IMG/VR virus record: IMGVR_UViG_3300032007_000068
Coordinates: 1 to 64,000 of that record
Origin: a virus
Taxonomy: Duplodnaviria > Caudoviricetes
Direction: 5' to 3' (one strand)
DNA: 64,000 nt
Shown here: piece by piece, positions 51,669-58,993 of the stretch
Layout: each line of letters begins with the position of its first letter
Position numbering within the stretch: the first letter of the stretch is position 1
Position numbers and translations under genes: made by a program
The notes under the pieces: generated by a model
Database searches by the model: none
Seen by the model: only the letters and a program-made list of their open reading frames with translations
Told to the model about the DNA's origin: nothing

Positions 51669-52226
51669 TTAATTATCCCAATGCGCCCGCAATCCATTAG
51701 CAATATATTCGACGATAGCTTCAAACTCTTCTAAAGAATTATTGAACAAGAGCGTATAAGTAATATCACTCAAATCTGCGAAGTCAGCTTCATCGGTGCC
51801 AAAACGCCGTATAATTTCGTATACGTTAGGTTGTTCTTCCCTATTTAGCTGCCGCAAAAGCCGTGCTTTATCATTGGCTACTAAATAAATAGTAATTAAC
51901 TCAATATCACGACGTTCCATTAAATTGCGGACGCCATTTGGGCTAAAAACTCCAATATTTATCTTGTCTGGTGATAGAGTATGCGCGGCTGTGCCATAAT
52001 GCCAGTTATTAAAAACGGTTTGTTCTAGTAAGTCAGCCGCCGCGAACTCTTCTTCGGTTACAAAGAAGTAGTCTCGTCCTTCTTTTTCATTGGCTCTTGG
52101 TGGGCGGGTGGTGCAAGAAATTAAAGCGTTAAAGTAATGTGGCATATAACTAACCACATTCTTTAACAAAGTATCTTTGCCGCACCCGGCTTTCCCCATA
52201 ATTGCTATAATTTTATATTTCTGCAT
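51669..52226 (-). CDS. gmk: Guanylate kinase-like protein (185 aa, no TAG)
   Basis: P-loop GKAGCGKDT, ISCTTRPPR.NEKEGRDYFFV, WHYGT. Confidence 0.82.
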   Translation of the reverse strand: MQKYKIIAIMGKAGCGKDTLLKNVVSYMPHYFNALISCTTRPPRANEKEGRDYFFVTEEEFAAADLLEQTVFNNWHYGTAAHTLSPDKINIGVFSPNGVRNLMERRDIELITIYLVANDKARLLRQLNREEQPNVYEIIRRFGTDEADFADLSDITYTLLFNNSLEEFEAIVEYIANGLRAHWDN

Positions 52227-55200
52227 CTTCTTCCTCTTCTCCTGGTATTCGTTCACTTCTTAATTGTAAATCTCCATTTGGCAGAATACCATCAATTTTA
52301 TATAATTGGTGCATACCACTTGCGGCGTATTTTTTAGGGATAAAATTATCACCACGACGGATACCTTGTATTAATATCATTTGCCCCTTATTAAACCAAC
52401 TACGCTCTAGAACAGTTTTACTACCATCTTCGTTTTTGCGGAATATTTGCCTATCAAATAAAGCGAAATATTCTTTTCTGAACTTAACAGTAACTACTCC
52501 ATCTGTGGTTAATAAAGAAACATTTCCCTTATTTTTATCTTTTGCTATACAAGTGCCTATAATAAAACTTAATTTATAAATAGGAACAGTAAAATCACCG
52601 CGCTTAAAAGTTTTTTCTACAATAGGCTCTTCTGGTAATTTATTAAAGGGGACAATATTATATTTGCGGGTGTTGGTATCTTTAAGTTCATGGTCGTGAT
52701 AATAAAAACATAACGCATCCATTTCCCAAGCGGAAAGATTGCCGCGTCCTTTATATTTATTCCAATCGCTCATAAAAATGGTTTCATTTAAGCTATCTAA
52801 AACGGCTTGTGGGTCTGCCTTTATCCAGGCTCGAAATACATCCATATATGATTGATATACTTTATCCCAAGCTTTAATATCTAAATACATATTAGTATTA
52901 TCAGTTTCTAATAAAGTGTCACAATCTATTTTTGCAAGAAAATCTATAGCGCGAGTATCTAATTGATATTTATTAGCTCGCATTGAGTGCTTACACTCTA
53001 CTTTTAAATACTTATTAAATTCATATACCCGTAAAGCCATTTGCTGTTCTTCTGTATCTTGCGGGAGTAGCCCATATCGTATTAAACCTGGCATATTTTG
53101 AAGCGTTACACGCGACTTTTTATCGCACGTATGCCAAATAAATTCTACCAAAGTGCGCGCCCTGTCTTGAAAGCTATCAAAAGCACCGCCCTTTATAAGC
53201 ATTATCATAGCTGTTTTATTAGGTTTTACTTTTTCGTAAAAGTCTAACCAAGATGAATATGGACGATTTTCTATGATACTTTGAACTACTTCTTCTCCCA
53301 CGTTGCTAATACCTTTTAAACCATATAGTATTCGGTTATGTGCAACTTCAGGGTAAAATGTATAACTTGACTCGTTGATATCAGGCGGATAAATGGTAAC
53401 ACCCGCCGCAATCATATGCCCCATAGCTTGTGCCATTTTTCCGTATTTAGCACCTTTGTTGTTAGCATCTTCGAGTTCACCGCCACCAGAGTTAGCTATG
53501 AGACAAGCACAATTCCAAAATATTATCGGAAATCTAAAAGCGAGATTCATTTCTTGTAGGCCTACGAGCGAATAAGCTAGGCAGTGAGAACGGTTAAATG
53601 AGTATCCGCGTTGCGGAGCAAGCAGAGTTTCCCATACATAGCGAACCAATGCGGGGGAACAACCCTTTTCTTTTGCGTTGCGGTAATACGTCTCCTGACA
53701 CTCATCAAATAATTTTCCGATTTTCTTAGCTAGCGCCTTGCGACATTGGTCAGCAAAGGTTAACGTATTGCCACCTAACCGTTCGTCTTGGACTAGGCTC
53801 ATGAGCCCTTCTTGGGACTCACACATCCCGTCTGTGCAGGCGTCATGGTGAGATAACCAACTGATTTCATCGGCAGTTAAACCCGCCTGCCGCATTTCGT
53901 TGTACCATTGATTAATATCTCGTCTATATCTTGCCCACATTTGGAGTGGTTGTTCAGCGCCTTTCTCTGGAGCCATTAGACGAATAACTGAATTTAAAAC
54001 AGTTAGGTCATTAAGATTTTTTGGTTTAATTAAAGCTATACCTTGAATACCACTTTCTTTTTCCATCTGAAACAAATCCTGAATTTCATGGTTCCAAATC
54101 ATCTGCCACATTTTAGGGTCTTTGCGCTCTAAGTTGTATATACCTATTGTTTTTTCGTATGTTTCTTTTAGAGTAGCGCCAGGTTTTATATAATTTTGTT
54201 CGATGAGTAGGTCTAAACACTGGTGAATCTTATCAAGGCAGTTTACCGAAAGAAGGTCTATCTTAATCAAACCAGCAGCCTCAGCGTCGTGTAACTCATA
54301 ACTAGTTACTACGTCGCCATTGGGCGCCCGCATTAAGGAAGTAGCATTCGTGAATGGCTCATCTACAAAAATTACTCCACCCGCGTGTTCTCCCACTGAA
54401 CAAATTACGTATAATCTAACATTTCTGTTAGTACTGACTATATCTTAACTCTATTCATAAATGAATAGACAACACCCGTTTCGGTTTTCATGCGCTTCGT
54501 TGCCTAAAACGCAGGTACGTATTAATAGTACCCCTACTGGCAGCTTAACCTGCCATAGTCGATACAGGCTCATTTTCGATCTTTTGGTCTAATAGGATAG
54601 ATGCGGTCTTTCTCATAGTAATTTTTACCGGAATTAATTCTAGATACACAAGAAGCATCACAAGAAACCAAATTCGCTATTTCTTTATTATTTAATTGAT
54701 TTTCTTCTAGTAGCTATTTAATCCATTCAGCTTTTTCTTTAAACTTTTTTTGTTCTTTGGTTTCTGGCCGAATAGGATAAGTTAAATTTGGCTATTTATT
54801 ATGACGTCCCATATTAATTGCTGAAACTTGTCCAACGTTAGTATTAGTTAATTCGGCTATTTCAGTATTTTTATATCCTTGTTGTAATAAAAGAATAATC
54901 TCTTGTATCTATTCTTCAGAAAGGAAATTTTTATTATTTGTTCTAATAGGATATTCATTATCGTTTAATAGTCGATATTTTGTACCAGCATTAATTTGAT
55001 TTACCGTACTAGCAGAGATATTAAACTATTTAGCTATTTCTGTTTGAGGTATTACAGTAGTTTGTAACATCATAATGATTCCTTGCGCCTATTCTTTTGA
55101 TAAAGAACAACGTAAATCCCAATAATTTTCATTGTTTTTTCGTTTCTATCCACCAATAGTTAAATTATATCCATTTCCATTTTTCACATAACTATTTTTT

Positions 55201-57346
55201 TCTTTTATCCAAAACTATTCTCGTGCATCAAGCTATTCTTTATCTTCTACTTCTTCTAAAATTACTAATTCAAAATTATCAATGCCGTATTCTCGTATTT
55301 TTTGGTGAAACAGGCAACTATAATCTGAAGCTTTTTCATGTGTAGCACCAGATAAATGTAAACGATGCCGTTCTTTTAATGGCATAGTAGTTTGTCCTAC
55401 ATACCACTTATTATTAGTTTTGTTCCTATAGCCATAAATATAATTCATAATGCTATCATCTCCTTCATATTATGTGAAAATGTTAGCATCTCTTTTAAAC
55501 ATTTTTGACCAAAAGTTCTAAAAAGTTCCCACGGAATTACCTTGCCTTTAAAAGTTTAGGTTTTCCCGTTAGCATATAAAAATTTTATATACCCCTAATT
55601 ATATATTAGGTAAGGGTGTTTGATAGGACCAATCTTATAGTGATCCCTCTATTTCACTAGCTACTTGCCACAACTCTTTATATTCTTTCATTGCTTGAAC
55701 AAAAGGCGCAACAGGTTTAAATCCCTTTTCTTCATCACCGTAATAACATTCGTGTAAAGTGCGGGTTTGGCCTCTGTCTGCGGGGACGAGAGAGGCAATA
55801 TACAAAGATATATCATTATCTATTCCCAAACCTCTCGCCGCGGTCTGAATTGCGGATTTTGCTTTCTCTGTATGGAAAGTAATAACATTGGCTACTCTAT
55901 CTTCGCCATAATAGTCTTTTAATGCTTGTAGTACGATGGGGCGACGGGCTGACTCTATATCGGTGTCAATGTCAAGTACGCTGACACGGTCAGGGTTGAG
56001 AAACCTCCACGCATAAGTTCGTGTCTCCTCCCAGAGAGGATTAATCTGTATGACATCCAAGATGTACAGTAAAAGGAAACCTACCCCAGAGCCTCTACCC
56101 GGTCCTACTAGCGTTCCTGCGTCCCAACACACTTGAATATTATTTTGAAGGTTTAAAAAGTAAGCTGACCATCTTGCGTTATTAACTTCTGAACTTTGCC
56201 AAGTGGTTTCAAGATTATTATTTAATTCATTATATATTTCTGGAGCTTGTAATCTTTCATCAGATAATAATTTGTCAACAATAGCAAGAGCAAGAACTCT
56301 GTCACTTTGATGCGGAGACTCATAAAAAATTTGTAATTGCGGGATGCGCTGGAACCATACTTTCTCTATTGCTGTAATATTTGGAATTTTCCATTTTAAA
56401 GCTGGGATTTTTAAAGGTTTTAATAAGCTATAATCTTCACAACTGCTACGAATTGTTAAAATATTCTCATAGGCTTTATTAAGCTGCTCTTTTGTAAAGT
56501 AAGGAAAGTAACTTTCAAGTTCCTCTGTACCCATCATATAAGTAGAGGCATAAAACTCGTCGACTTCCCTTTCTCCTTCTTGCGCGGTTAGGAAAGCTTT
56601 ATGAATGGGGCGGTCGGTCTTGCGCAGATAATGGCTATCAGTGGTTATGATATATGGAATTTTTAACTGATTAGACAGCTCCACTAAAACTTGGTTAACA
56701 TAAATTTGGTCGCTATTATAAGAAGGTTGCATTTCTAAATAAAAATTATCTGTGCCAAAAATAGATTGCATCCAAGTACACCAAGTCATAATATTATTCT
56801 TATAATCTACAGCTTCTTGTCCCTGGAGTGTTTTTAATTTGAGAATTTTAGTAGCAAGAAATCCGCCTAGACAAGCGGTACTGCCAATTATATGGCCCGG
56901 GTTCGTACCAATAATTTCTTCTATGTCTTGGTAATAAGTAGGAACCCGTGCCATATTAAAAGATTTATAGGAACGAAGAAAAGCTCTGGTAGATAATTCC
57001 CGCAGTTGCTGATGTCCAACAGCGTCTTTAGCCAGAAGAATAAAGTGGAAATATTTATCTTCACCGCGCACGTAGTTAGAAGCGTCAAGCCCATCCCGCA
57101 CTAGATATATCTCATTTCCTAAGATGACTTTAAAATCTGGGTGCTCTTGTTTAATTTTTGTATAGTATTGTTCTACTTTTATATGGCTACTTAAACATTC
57201 ATGCTCGGTAATTGCAATAACTTGATGCCCCAATTCAATCGCATAGTCTATTAATGTATTATAACGATTAATACTATCTCGAAGGCGTGTATTGCTATAA
57301 TCTGTGTGGTTCAGTTATGAAGACTTCCTGGATAAGGTATCTTCAC
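52213..57346 (-). CDS. dnaE: DNA polymerase III alpha subunit (C family), split by a group I intron (exons 57346-55643 and 54407-52213), with a 5-nt insertion at 57309-57313
   Basis: PHP domain (YPGSLHN/HTDYS, ITEHE, ILGNEIY, TTDSHY), GPGRGSG, LDIDTD, junction EIEG-L-ICSVGEHAGGV, IKIDLL, GYSFNRSH, OB fold. No TAG in the two long exon ORFs. Confidence 0.9.
54408..55642 (-). mobile_element. Group I intron in dnaE (1235 nt) carrying a GIY-YIG homing endonuclease
   Basis: Exon ends in GGAT and intron ends in TACG. P7 GACTAT (54560-54555) / ATAGTC (54441-54436). Core resembles terL intron 2. Confidence 0.9.
54570..55448 (-). CDS. Intron-encoded GIY-YIG homing endonuclease (292 aa, many TAG=Gln)
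   Basis: YIYGYRNKTNNKWYVGQT...IREYGIDNF...GYNLT, then repeated YPIR-terminated helix-turn-helix modules; ends at TGA 54572-54570. Confidence 0.88.
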
Positions 57347-57548
57347 TTGGCATTCCCCCTTTCAACTCTTCTGCGGCAGCCTATTCCAATAAATTCATAT
57401 TAGTAGTATCGGTTTTGCAAGTATGGCGATAATGGTTCCAGACTTCCCAGAAATTATGCTCACTTAGCCACTCATAAGACATCTAATTCAAAGAAGGAAA
57501 GGGTTCCATAGAATCAGCAAAACTATTATCTGTCCCAAAAATACTTAT
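57315..57548 (-). CDS. Small hypothetical protein (77 aa; probable ATA start; overlaps the dnaE start)
   Basis: RBS AAGGAGG 8 nt before ATA; two TAGs; ends at TAA at the dnaE insertion site. Confidence 0.4.
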
Positions 57549-57578
57549 GTTCTTCCCCTCCTTTTTTTATATAATAAT

Positions 57579-57607
57579 ATTATAACATATTTACTGAACA
57601 AAATCAA
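57579..57607 (-). promoter_or_regulatory. Sigma70-type promoter for the dnaE-gmk block
   Basis: TTGATT-17 nt-TATAAT with an extended TG. Confidence 0.75.
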
Positions 57608-58254
57608 CTTGCTCGATGTATCCAATGCATGAGAGGTGGGAAACATCCATAGTTAATTAGTGTTTTATTCCACACCAGCCAACAATATGCCTGCGCGGAA
57701 GAGCCAGCGGGTTTTTCGCCGTTCTTCCAACACTGTATTCTATCAATATATTGATAGATCTCACTTGGTGGCTCTTTCGCAAAGATATTTTTATATCTGC
57801 TGGCTCCTTCAAGAGCCTGAGTACGGCAAAGCACAATCAGCTTTTCTTGAGCAATTTCAAGAGCACGAATAAGAAAAGGTTCAAGTGTTGCATAAGGCGG
57901 ATTCATAATGATTATATCTGCTTTATCTATAGGGTAATTATCACCTAAAAAGTCTAAATCGTCGCCATAAAGCAATATTGCTTCATTTGAGTGATAACCG
58001 CGGTCTTGAACATCCGTCCCCGTTGGCTGAGGACACTTATAGTTATTGGCATTAAGATATTGAAGAATGCCGTTCATCATATGACCACCACCAACACAAG
58101 GCTCAAGTATACTTTTATTGGAAAAGTCATACTTTAACGTATTTAATATATTGGTTACTTCGTTAGTGGGAGTAGAATAATAATCCAATTCTGCTCTTTC
58201 TTTATTATTTTTTTTATAAGAGTTATATAATCCTTTGTTGGTATATTGTCCCAT
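57604..58254 (-). CDS. DNA N6-adenine methyltransferase (216 aa, no TAG)
   Basis: DYYSTP, ILEPCVGGG and IIMNPPY. Confidence 0.85.
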   Translation of the reverse strand: MGQYTNKGLYNSYKKNNKERAELDYYSTPTNEVTNILNTLKYDFSNKSILEPCVGGGHMMNGILQYLNANNYKCPQPTGTDVQDRGYHSNEAILLYGDDLDFLGDNYPIDKADIIIMNPPYATLEPFLIRALEIAQEKLIVLCRTQALEGASRYKNIFAKEPPSEIYQYIDRIQCWKNGEKPAGSSAQAYCWLVWNKTLINYGCFPPLMHWIHRAS

Positions 58255-58255
58255 C

Positions 58256-58993
58256 TTATGCTCCTTTGTATTTATATAACCTTTCTACCGCCTTGAAAGT
58301 ATTATCTTTCCCCGCAGTCCTTTTACACTCTCGCTCCCATATTATTTCAAAATCTTCTGGAGCGGTTTGTTCAGAGATAAAAACTGAATTACAACTGCTT
58401 AACTCTCGTACCCAATTCCAGAAATGCTCATAATCCATACGGGGTTCGCTGGCGTAGCCGTAAAATTTAGTGTTCGCATATGGCGGGTCTAAGTAGATTA
58501 CAGCACCAGTTGTGCTAGGGTCAAGTTCCCAATAATTTTGACATTTAAAAATAATACCCTTTAAGTTAGGCGCTTGCTTTTCCATATTACGATAAGCTTC
58601 TTGATAATAATTGCGGGTACTAGAGTTCTTCGCATAGCCTCTAGGAAAACCACCATTACTAAAGCTAGCAAAAAATTCAATAGCACCAACATCAGCAAGA
58701 GACATAGTAGTCAAAGGTTTCCCGTCTTTTACATAAGCTTTGCCTTCATCCCACATTTCTCTATTACCATCTTTTGGAAGCGCTGAAAAATCAAGAGCTG
58801 CTTGATTTAAAAGAGCTATTAAAGTTTCGCTGCGGTCATAGCCATATCTATTATCACAGTTTATTTTATCTATTATATTAGCTCCACCAACAAAACACTC
58901 TATATAAGTATTTGTTTTTGTTTTATCTATCTCGGCCTGTAAAATTGGAACAATGTATTTGGCAAATTTAGCCTTACTTCCCATATAAACCAT
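58256..58993 (-). CDS. D12-class (Dam-like) DNA adenine methyltransferase (245 aa, no TAG)
   Basis: YMGSKAK, YIECFVGGA and IYLDPPY. Confidence 0.88.
   Translation of the reverse strand: MVYMGSKAKFAKYIVPILQAEIDKTKTNTYIECFVGGANIIDKINCDNRYGYDRSETLIALLNQAALDFSALPKDGNREMWDEGKAYVKDGKPLTTMSLADVGAIEFFASFSNGGFPRGYAKNSSTRNYYQEAYRNMEKQAPNLKGIIFKCQNYWELDPSTTGAVIYLDPPYANTKFYGYASEPRMDYEHFWNWVRELSSCNSVFISEQTAPEDFEIIWERECKRTAGKDNTFKAVERLYKYKGA

Follow-up and report, generated by a model that had tools for sequence, protein, structure and literature searches.

The DNA analysed here, which we call the window, is a stretch of 64,000 nucleotides (nt) from a 75.9-kb IMG/VR contig (IMGVR_UViG_3300032007_000068) that derives from bovine gut metagenomes, belongs to an uncultured phage and is estimated to be 46% complete. 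On its minus strand lies dnaE, a gene for a DnaE-type replicative polymerase, whose reading frame is broken after eleven codons by five bases, TGAAC, that open with a stop codon. We describe this gap together with a family of similar gaps in the dnaE genes of related phages, and suggest that it is likely to be crossed at codon 11 by a 5-base programmed translational bypass (a stop-hop), a reading drawn from sequence comparison.

A stop-led gap in the PHP motif of dnaE

The gene begins at a GTG codon behind a ribosome-binding site (RBS), and its first eleven codons specify the N-terminal peptide of intact relatives, KIPYPGSLHN after the initiator, before the frame runs into TGA; the rest of the motif resumes five bases further on in another frame. 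This arrangement, including the coordinates 57319-57306, is exactly as described in the original prediction, which a model had made from the letters of the window. That prediction had also noticed a second AAC overlapping the TGA, such that a slip from the first AAC to the second yields LHNHTDYS, and omission of 57313-57309 does restore SLHNHTDYSN, the motif of intact relatives. When the gap is skipped and a downstream intron is removed, dnaE becomes a single frame of 1297 residues with no internal stop and no TAG codon. Its Pfam domains follow the order of a DnaE-type DNA polymerase III (Pol III) alpha subunit, namely PHP, DNA_pol3_alpha, finger and HhH, with E values of 1.8e-20 to 2.3e-36 and scores above the cut-offs. 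The coordinates of these features are collected in Table 1.

A codon followed by a stop, a few bases and the same codon again is a frequent arrangement by chance: a loose scan that required an open downstream frame returned 256 such places in the 75.9-kb record. The geometry is therefore uninformative without homology, and the site in dnaE is non-random because it falls inside a conserved motif and because of the comparative evidence given below. A 77-residue open reading frame (ORF) upstream, which had been reported to stop at the same site, needs readthrough of two TAG codons to stay open, and no ordinary start follows its RBS-like site. It is missing from three ENA assemblies of a related strain (L067-L069), despite their having the same gap; the upstream spacer of these assemblies is different and much shorter. 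Since this ORF is not conserved, we place it outside the mechanism.

Table 1. Features of dnaE and its upstream region in the window.
Feature	Coordinates	Strand	Remarks
Promoter-like site	57579..57607	-	TTGATT, 17-nt spacer, TATAAT, TG before the -10 hexamer; 10/12 consensus matches
RBS, AAAGGGGG	57355..57362	-	8 nt before the GTG start; identical in L067-L069
GTG start of dnaE	57346-57344	-	
dnaE codons 1-11, V K I P Y P G S L H N	57314..57346	-	From GTG to take-off codon; peptide is the N-terminus of intact relatives
Hairpin	57317..57346	-	5' arm 57346-57339 with the start codon; 3' arm 57324-57317 over the Leu-His codons
Take-off codon AAC (Asn)	57314..57316	-	
5-nt untranslated gap TGAAC (putative)	57309..57313	-	In contigs of four studies and three ENA assemblies
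Stop TGA inside the gap	57313-57311	-	
Landing codon AAC (predicted)	57311-57309	-	Overlaps the TGA
Resume codon CAC	57308-57306	-	Opens the frame HTDYSNTRLRD...
dnaE exon 1 after the gap	55643..57308	-	PHP and start of Pol III alpha domain (Pfam); end taken from intron-less X5 DNA contig and L067
Group I-like intron in dnaE	54408..55642	-	1235 nt; GIY-YIG ORF inside
dnaE exon 2	52213..54407	-	End of Pol III alpha domain, finger, HhH (Pfam); stop included

The five bases are real and the gene behind them is under selection

Contigs, rather than raw reads, from four runs belonging to four studies were compared over 54000-58500, and no insertion or deletion was found in any of them. The gap site is spanned without alignment gaps by an independent assembly of the source sample (X1) and by contigs from two other DNA studies, X3 and X5, which carry 27 and 18 substitutions, respectively. 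A contig from an RNA library (X10) is identical to the window, with the five bases unchanged. The same gap site is present in the ENA assemblies L067-L069, which represent a strain with 96.7% identity to the window in dnaE DNA. These contigs and assemblies rule out the assembly artefact that the original prediction had held out as one explanation; the five extra bases are real.

The reading frame behind the gap is also well maintained. Between the window and L067, whose dnaE has no intron and stays open for 1286 codons from the resume codon, the downstream frame differs by 106 synonymous and 18 non-synonymous codon changes, and the two other frames, used as controls, show the reverse (5:49, 2:52, 9:62 and 3:68). 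Differences of X3 and X5 from the window point the same way, with 23 synonymous and 5 non-synonymous changes. Such strong purifying selection behind the gap means that dnaE must be translated across it. A megablast search of the region against GenBank phages returned no match.

Short stop-led gaps recur in one motif of related polymerases

The motif is uninterrupted in all of the first 20 IMG/VR relatives (34-67% identical), and the form GSLHNHTxYSN is intact in most relatives overall. About 50 of 240 homologous protein clusters, nevertheless, lack the motif in the called protein. When the DNA of twelve of these clusters was read, some proved to be mere start-codon miscalls, and others contained short inserts in this same motif. 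This first set comprises ten loci that are interrupted at the DNA level; L027 (P0081) was left out, since its upstream sequence is unrelated and GC-rich and the contig is probably chimeric. The insert of the window, TGAAC, recurs at an identical position in L030 and L072, though their proteins are only 62-68% identical to that of the window, and L053 has a 4-base version of the insert. Inserts of 5 or 7 bases follow the second His codon in L029, L070 and L026, and inserts of 7, 9 and 10 bases follow the Ser codon in L028, L032/L033 and L071.

A second set was drawn without regard to the 5' end, as 80 of at least 305 metagenome loci picked through two internal motifs of the gene. It contains 52 intact loci, 20 with inserts of 4-12 bases and 8 that could not be classified by the anchors. 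In both sets the inserts lie after the His1, Asn, His2 or Ser codon of the motif, and all 30 (10 from the first set and 20 from the second) open with a stop codon, TAA, TAG or TGA, in the incoming frame. The last three bases of most inserts repeat the codon that precedes the stop; of the 20 loci in the second set, 13 have a cognate landing codon, 4 have one that agrees at the first two bases and 3 have an imperfect one. Three of these 20 inserts are in frame, and a frameshift is thus unable to explain them.

No other short frame-breaking insert was seen elsewhere in the 1300-codon dnaE gene of about 70 loci, where all other breaks are introns of at least 175 bases. In a tree of 239 sequences the verified gap lineages account for 9 state changes, each nested among intact relatives, and IMG/VR searches with three gap-bearing proteins found few or no close relatives. 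A separate observation concerns L040 (positions 1790-1810; IMGVR_UViG_3300028048_000403), in which one extra T creates CUU UGA C, the heptamer of the RF2-type +1 frameshift, in the RLLDC segment of dnaE, a few codons past the usual gap sites, and which has an HNH gene directly upstream of dnaE. Either recoding by +1 or an error of sequencing could account for the extra base.

A hairpin abuts the take-off codon

In the window, the bases between the start codon and the take-off codon form a hairpin of 8 pairs (-10 to -11.5 kcal/mol, z = -3.0), whose 3' arm ends on the base that precedes the take-off codon. The signal emerges solely when the fold is restricted to this interval; a 131-nt fold around the whole site has z = 0.14. 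For comparison among loci we took the 48 nt before the take-off codon as the unit of folding and gave intact controls the best of three virtual sites. The minimum-energy fold is a hairpin in all ten loci of the first set, with the 5' arm drawn from the start codon and the 3' arm ending 0 to 2 bases into the take-off codon, and the median energy is -11.7 kcal/mol, as against -7.1 kcal/mol in 36 intact relatives (p = 5.9e-6).

Covariation counts from RNAalifold on MAFFT alignments proved unreliable, as the 5' arms were misaligned, and we replaced them by a pair table built from anchors. In this table seven pairs join the start-codon region to the Leu-His codons in 7/7 loci interrupted at the Asn or His2 site, and L026 has a compensatory GC-to-CG exchange that alters two amino acids. 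Only in the loci whose take-off codon lies one codon further on is the helix longer, by three pairs. It follows from this extension in register that the helix always abuts the take-off codon.

The second set, which was not used in forming the idea of a hairpin, shows the same feature: in 20/20 interrupted loci a hairpin ends within -3 to +2 nt of the take-off codon. Its arms differ in sequence at the His1 and Ser sites, and the median is -10.5 kcal/mol, compared with -7.0 kcal/mol in intact loci (p = 1.3e-6). Under a strict criterion, a contiguous helix of at least 6 pairs, which under-counts bulged stems, the hairpin is found in 10/20 interrupted and 8/51 intact loci; we regard the energies and the individual folds as the better measure. 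By these, an abutting hairpin, stronger than in intact loci, accompanies the gap in 30/30 interrupted loci, an architecture generally lacking in intact relatives.

A stop-hop model and its alternatives

A programmed stop-hop, as the original prediction had proposed for the window, is strongly supported by this comparison, through the recovery of the gap in DNA from several studies, the purifying selection behind it, the 30 stop-led gaps, the matched codons and the abutting hairpin. A single hop rule is the simplest account that fits every gap variant. Under this rule, ribosomes would initiate at GTG 57346, translate 11 codons and stall with peptidyl-tRNA-Asn on AAC 57316-57314 and UGA in the A site. 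The tRNA would then un-pair, the mRNA would slide by 5 bases (4-12 across the family) and the tRNA would re-pair with AAC 57311-57309, so that decoding restarts at CAC 57308 and produces the metal-binding motif SLHNHTDYSN and, after splicing, the enzyme of 1297 residues. The tryptic peptide expected across the junction from a +5 hop is IPYPGSLHNHTDYSNTR. A tRNA search found no phage tRNA in the window or in the whole 75.9-kb record, and none can therefore be linked to the hop.

The position of the hairpin suggests how the slide might be given a direction. At the pause its 3' arm would lie in the E site and exit channel and could pair with the released 5' arm only if the mRNA moved forward, such that folding behind the ribosome would pull the mRNA onward and block backward slipping. 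Pairing of the exiting mRNA has been proposed as a driver of forward bypassing in T4 gene 60 (bioRxiv 10.1101/2024.12.09.627546). That the ribosome hops, how efficiently it does so and that the hairpin pulls are all inferences from the arrangement of these sites.

The alternative that fares best is termination followed by re-initiation, or independent initiation, at a CUG that overlaps the stop (57314-57312; UUG in L030, L072, L029 and L070). Its product would be a DnaE without the first 10-12 residues, the first histidine of the HxH motif among them. It is true that in gaps of the TGAAY type the stop overlaps a near-cognate or weak start (C/UUGA), and gene callers start several relatives there. 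We nonetheless consider this reading unlikely. It is feasible for TGAAY-type gaps only; where the gaps lie at the S or His1 site, or are in frame with 9 or 12 bases, no start codon stands at the point of resumption. In bacteria CUG works very poorly as a start, and no Shine-Dalgarno (SD) sequence lies at a useful distance. The HxH motif is present in every intact relative examined and the leader peptide YPGSLHN(H) is kept in every interrupted lineage, and re-initiation leaves the matched codons, the register of the hairpin and the in-frame gaps unexplained.

Other forms of recoding seem to us quite improbable, whether by a frameshift of -1 or +2, with SLHN-L-NHT or SLHN-N-HT as the product, or by excision of the 5 bases from the RNA. 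A single shift by +2 or -1 does formally reach the needed frame, and events at the RNA level are compatible with the contigs. Frameshifting would, however, put one or two further residues into HxH, which is invariant, and tRNA-Asn has no slippery sequence at -1. A different shift would be required for each gap length, both for the in-frame ones (6, 9 and 12 bases) and for those of 4, 7, 8 and 10 bases. As for removal from the RNA, the RNA-library contig X10 retains the five bases. Plain inactivation by frameshift of a gene that is dying or dispensable, or an error of assembly or sequencing, might be suspected from the uninterrupted motif of most relatives and the incomplete metagenome contig from which the window comes, but it is very hard to credit, given the same 5 bases in four studies and three ENA assemblies, the strong purifying selection behind the gap, and the fact that random frameshifts would not all be stop-led, codon-matched, preceded by a hairpin and confined to a 10-codon stretch of a 1300-codon gene.

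Several points weigh against the stop-hop and the origin proposed for it in the next section. The landing codon is imperfectly matched in 7/30 gaps. Conservation within the window lineage is shallow, its strains differing by no more than 3.3% and the next relatives having about 69% protein identity, and the contigs may leave room for a minority of gap-free genomes in the population. The nascent chain is 11 residues long at take-off, and a nascent-peptide signal like that of gene 60, which lies 14-30 residues from the P site, would be unable to act. The hairpin hides the start codon and might instead have a role in the control of initiation. Short stop-hops in synthetic E. coli constructs are inefficient, and low-yield synthesis of a replicative polymerase is an uncomfortable idea. 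Finally, neither the window nor the ENA strain has an endonuclease gene upstream of dnaE, the window having a methyltransferase gene and a spacer there. A candidate for a decayed HNH or GIY-YIG remnant in this spacer, suggested by weak colinear tblastn matches, was rejected, as a hidden Markov model scan of the whole window placed it at background level.

Homing endonucleases and a possible origin of the gaps

In the second set, 7/17 interrupted loci have a GIY-YIG or HNH gene immediately upstream of dnaE, compared with 1/43 intact loci (Fisher p = 3.4e-4), and the first set adds L029, L030 and L071 to the loci with an upstream endonuclease. A Pfam search of the ORFs upstream of intact loci mostly assigned no family. 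The sole intact locus of the second set with an HNH-like gene upstream is L125 (24-710), where the match falls into two pieces (39% identity over 100 residues and 33% over 122); this endonuclease gene may be decaying.

The association with endonucleases points to a scar of target-site immunity as the origin of the gaps, rather than to a throttle on the polymerase. In T4, the 50-nt gap of gene 60 shields the DNA of the MobA element itself from being cut, and in some lineages it is still there after the endonuclease has gone (bioRxiv 10.1101/2022.08.31.505936). By analogy, the dnaE gaps may be scars that keep an endonuclease from cutting its target in a conserved motif, and the gap of the window would be a survivor of a lineage whose endonuclease has been lost. 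Throttling of polymerase synthesis, the function that had been suggested for the window's gap at the outset, is possible.

Introns, inteins and the upstream region

The intron of the window's dnaE is group I-like: the Rfam model Intron_gpI matches 54415-54676 with 23.9 bits (E 0.0015), below threshold, and no Rfam family matches at the gathering threshold anywhere in the window. It is not present in the X5 DNA contigs or in the ENA strain L067-L069, and substitutions are concentrated to either side of where it is inserted (54337-54373 and 55707-55757), the pattern that co-conversion tracts would leave. Its GIY-YIG ORF (54572-55469, minus strand) has 8 in-frame TAG codons and ends in TGA, and on the plus strand the ORFs of 1-45000 look fragmented under translation table 11. 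These features are consistent with TAG being read as a sense codon, Gln (code 15), in this phage.

Introns occur at recurrent positions in dnaE (residues ~443-453, 608, 832-840 and 872-876 of full-length relatives) in L011-L015, L018, L055, L058-L060 and other loci, and at least one cluster (P0046) has intein and LAGLIDADG domains; dnaE is a hotspot for selfish elements. The gap itself had also been explained as the residue of a group I intron, AACTG, collapsed in assembly or deleted. That explanation finds no support, as no longer form was seen in any contig and none of more than 100 relatives has an intron at this site.

Upstream of dnaE, other strains (X3, with its joint at 57362|57719, and L067-L069) have different DNA in place of 57363-57718, which takes in the spacer and the end (3') of the methyltransferase gene, and the methyltransferase gene of L067-L069 is just 77% identical to that of the window, compared with 96.7% for dnaE. 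A mosaic boundary thus lies directly at the dnaE RBS. The promoter-like site comes from a consensus scan alone, and the region containing it is replaced in L067-L069. Just past this site, at 57555-57575 on the minus strand, is the strong SD-like sequence AAAGGAGGGG, which is followed by ATA and ATT and has none of the starts ATG, GTG and TTG at the usual distance; it may serve as a leader stabiliser or belong to a non-canonical start.

Comparison with known systems

The known cases of efficient natural bypassing are essentially T4 gene 60 with its homologues and a single lineage of yeast mitochondria. Stop-hops have been described from synthetic constructs only, with no natural in-frame case known, and short natural hops, though long expected, had not been found (PMC5009743). 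Our literature search found no published description of gaps in phage dnaE.

The +1 frameshift of RF2 (prfB), CUU UGA C, resembles the proposed mechanism in that a stop in the A site acts as the pause and the P-site tRNA re-pairs. The window's AAC UGA A, in contrast, needs a movement of +5, has no SD three bases upstream, and leads to a new codon that does not overlap the old one. The mitochondrial bypass elements (byps) of Magnusiomyces capitatus (Lang et al. 2014; Nosek et al. 2015, cited in PMC5009743) are likewise numerous short frame-breaking inserts, some with codons matched at 2/3 bases, and translational bypassing makes them tolerable. They are, however, 27-55 bases long, are scattered over many genes, and place an unused codon in the A site under relaxed mitochondrial decoding, whereas the dnaE gaps fall in one motif of one gene, are stop-led and lie behind a hairpin.

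There is also a resemblance in geometry to the stop-hops and the +5 and +6 hops of synthetic E. coli constructs (Weiss, Dunn, Atkins and Gesteland 1987, in PMC5009743), in which matched codons surround the stop, re-pairing takes place a few bases downstream and the whole stretch specifies one amino acid. Those sites were engineered; the dnaE sites are natural and recurrent, occur in an essential gene and have a dedicated hairpin.

T4 gene 60 with MobA (Huang et al. 1988, cited in PMC5009743; Manning and Atkins, bioRxiv 10.1101/2022.08.31.505936) shares further features with the dnaE gaps. In both, the conserved metal-binding region of an essential phage replication gene is interrupted, the stop directly follows the take-off codon and the landing codon matches it; in both, a free-standing homing-endonuclease gene stands beside the gap in relatives, and the gap persists in endonuclease-free lineages. 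There are also differences. The dnaE gaps are 4-12 bases long (5 in the window) instead of 50, with no space for a take-off stem-loop or an SD within them; the nascent chain is 11-16 residues, with no nascent-peptide signal, and the hairpin is built from the start-codon region. The gene is dnaE and not a topoisomerase gene, the endonucleases are GIY-YIG or of a different HNH group, the gaps have no sequence homology to the T4 cassette, and that of the window adjoins no endonuclease gene. The proposed mechanism is like gene 60 bypassing, but lacks its gap length, nascent-peptide signal, internal SD and homology.

We are inclined to see in these gaps a new natural class of micro-bypass, in which 4-12 stop-led bases would be crossed by a tRNA hop driven by a hairpin of the start region. 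Such elements occur in roughly a quarter of a large family of phages from gut and rumen, and free-standing homing endonucleases whose target is the PHP motif would have created or spread them. In practical terms, gene callers truncate or mis-start about one in four of these polymerase genes. If this reading is correct, selfish endonucleases can repeatedly force an essential gene into non-standard decoding, and the dozens of natural variants, which between them have three stop codons at four take-off positions, gaps 4-12 bases long and perfect or imperfect landing codons, all behind a simple hairpin and with almost no nascent peptide, would amount to a ready mutational series on how the ribosome releases a codon and finds it again. 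The dnaE gaps would then be the first natural short-range stop-hop and, after T4 gene 60 and MobA, the second independent cassette to combine a bypass with an endonuclease.

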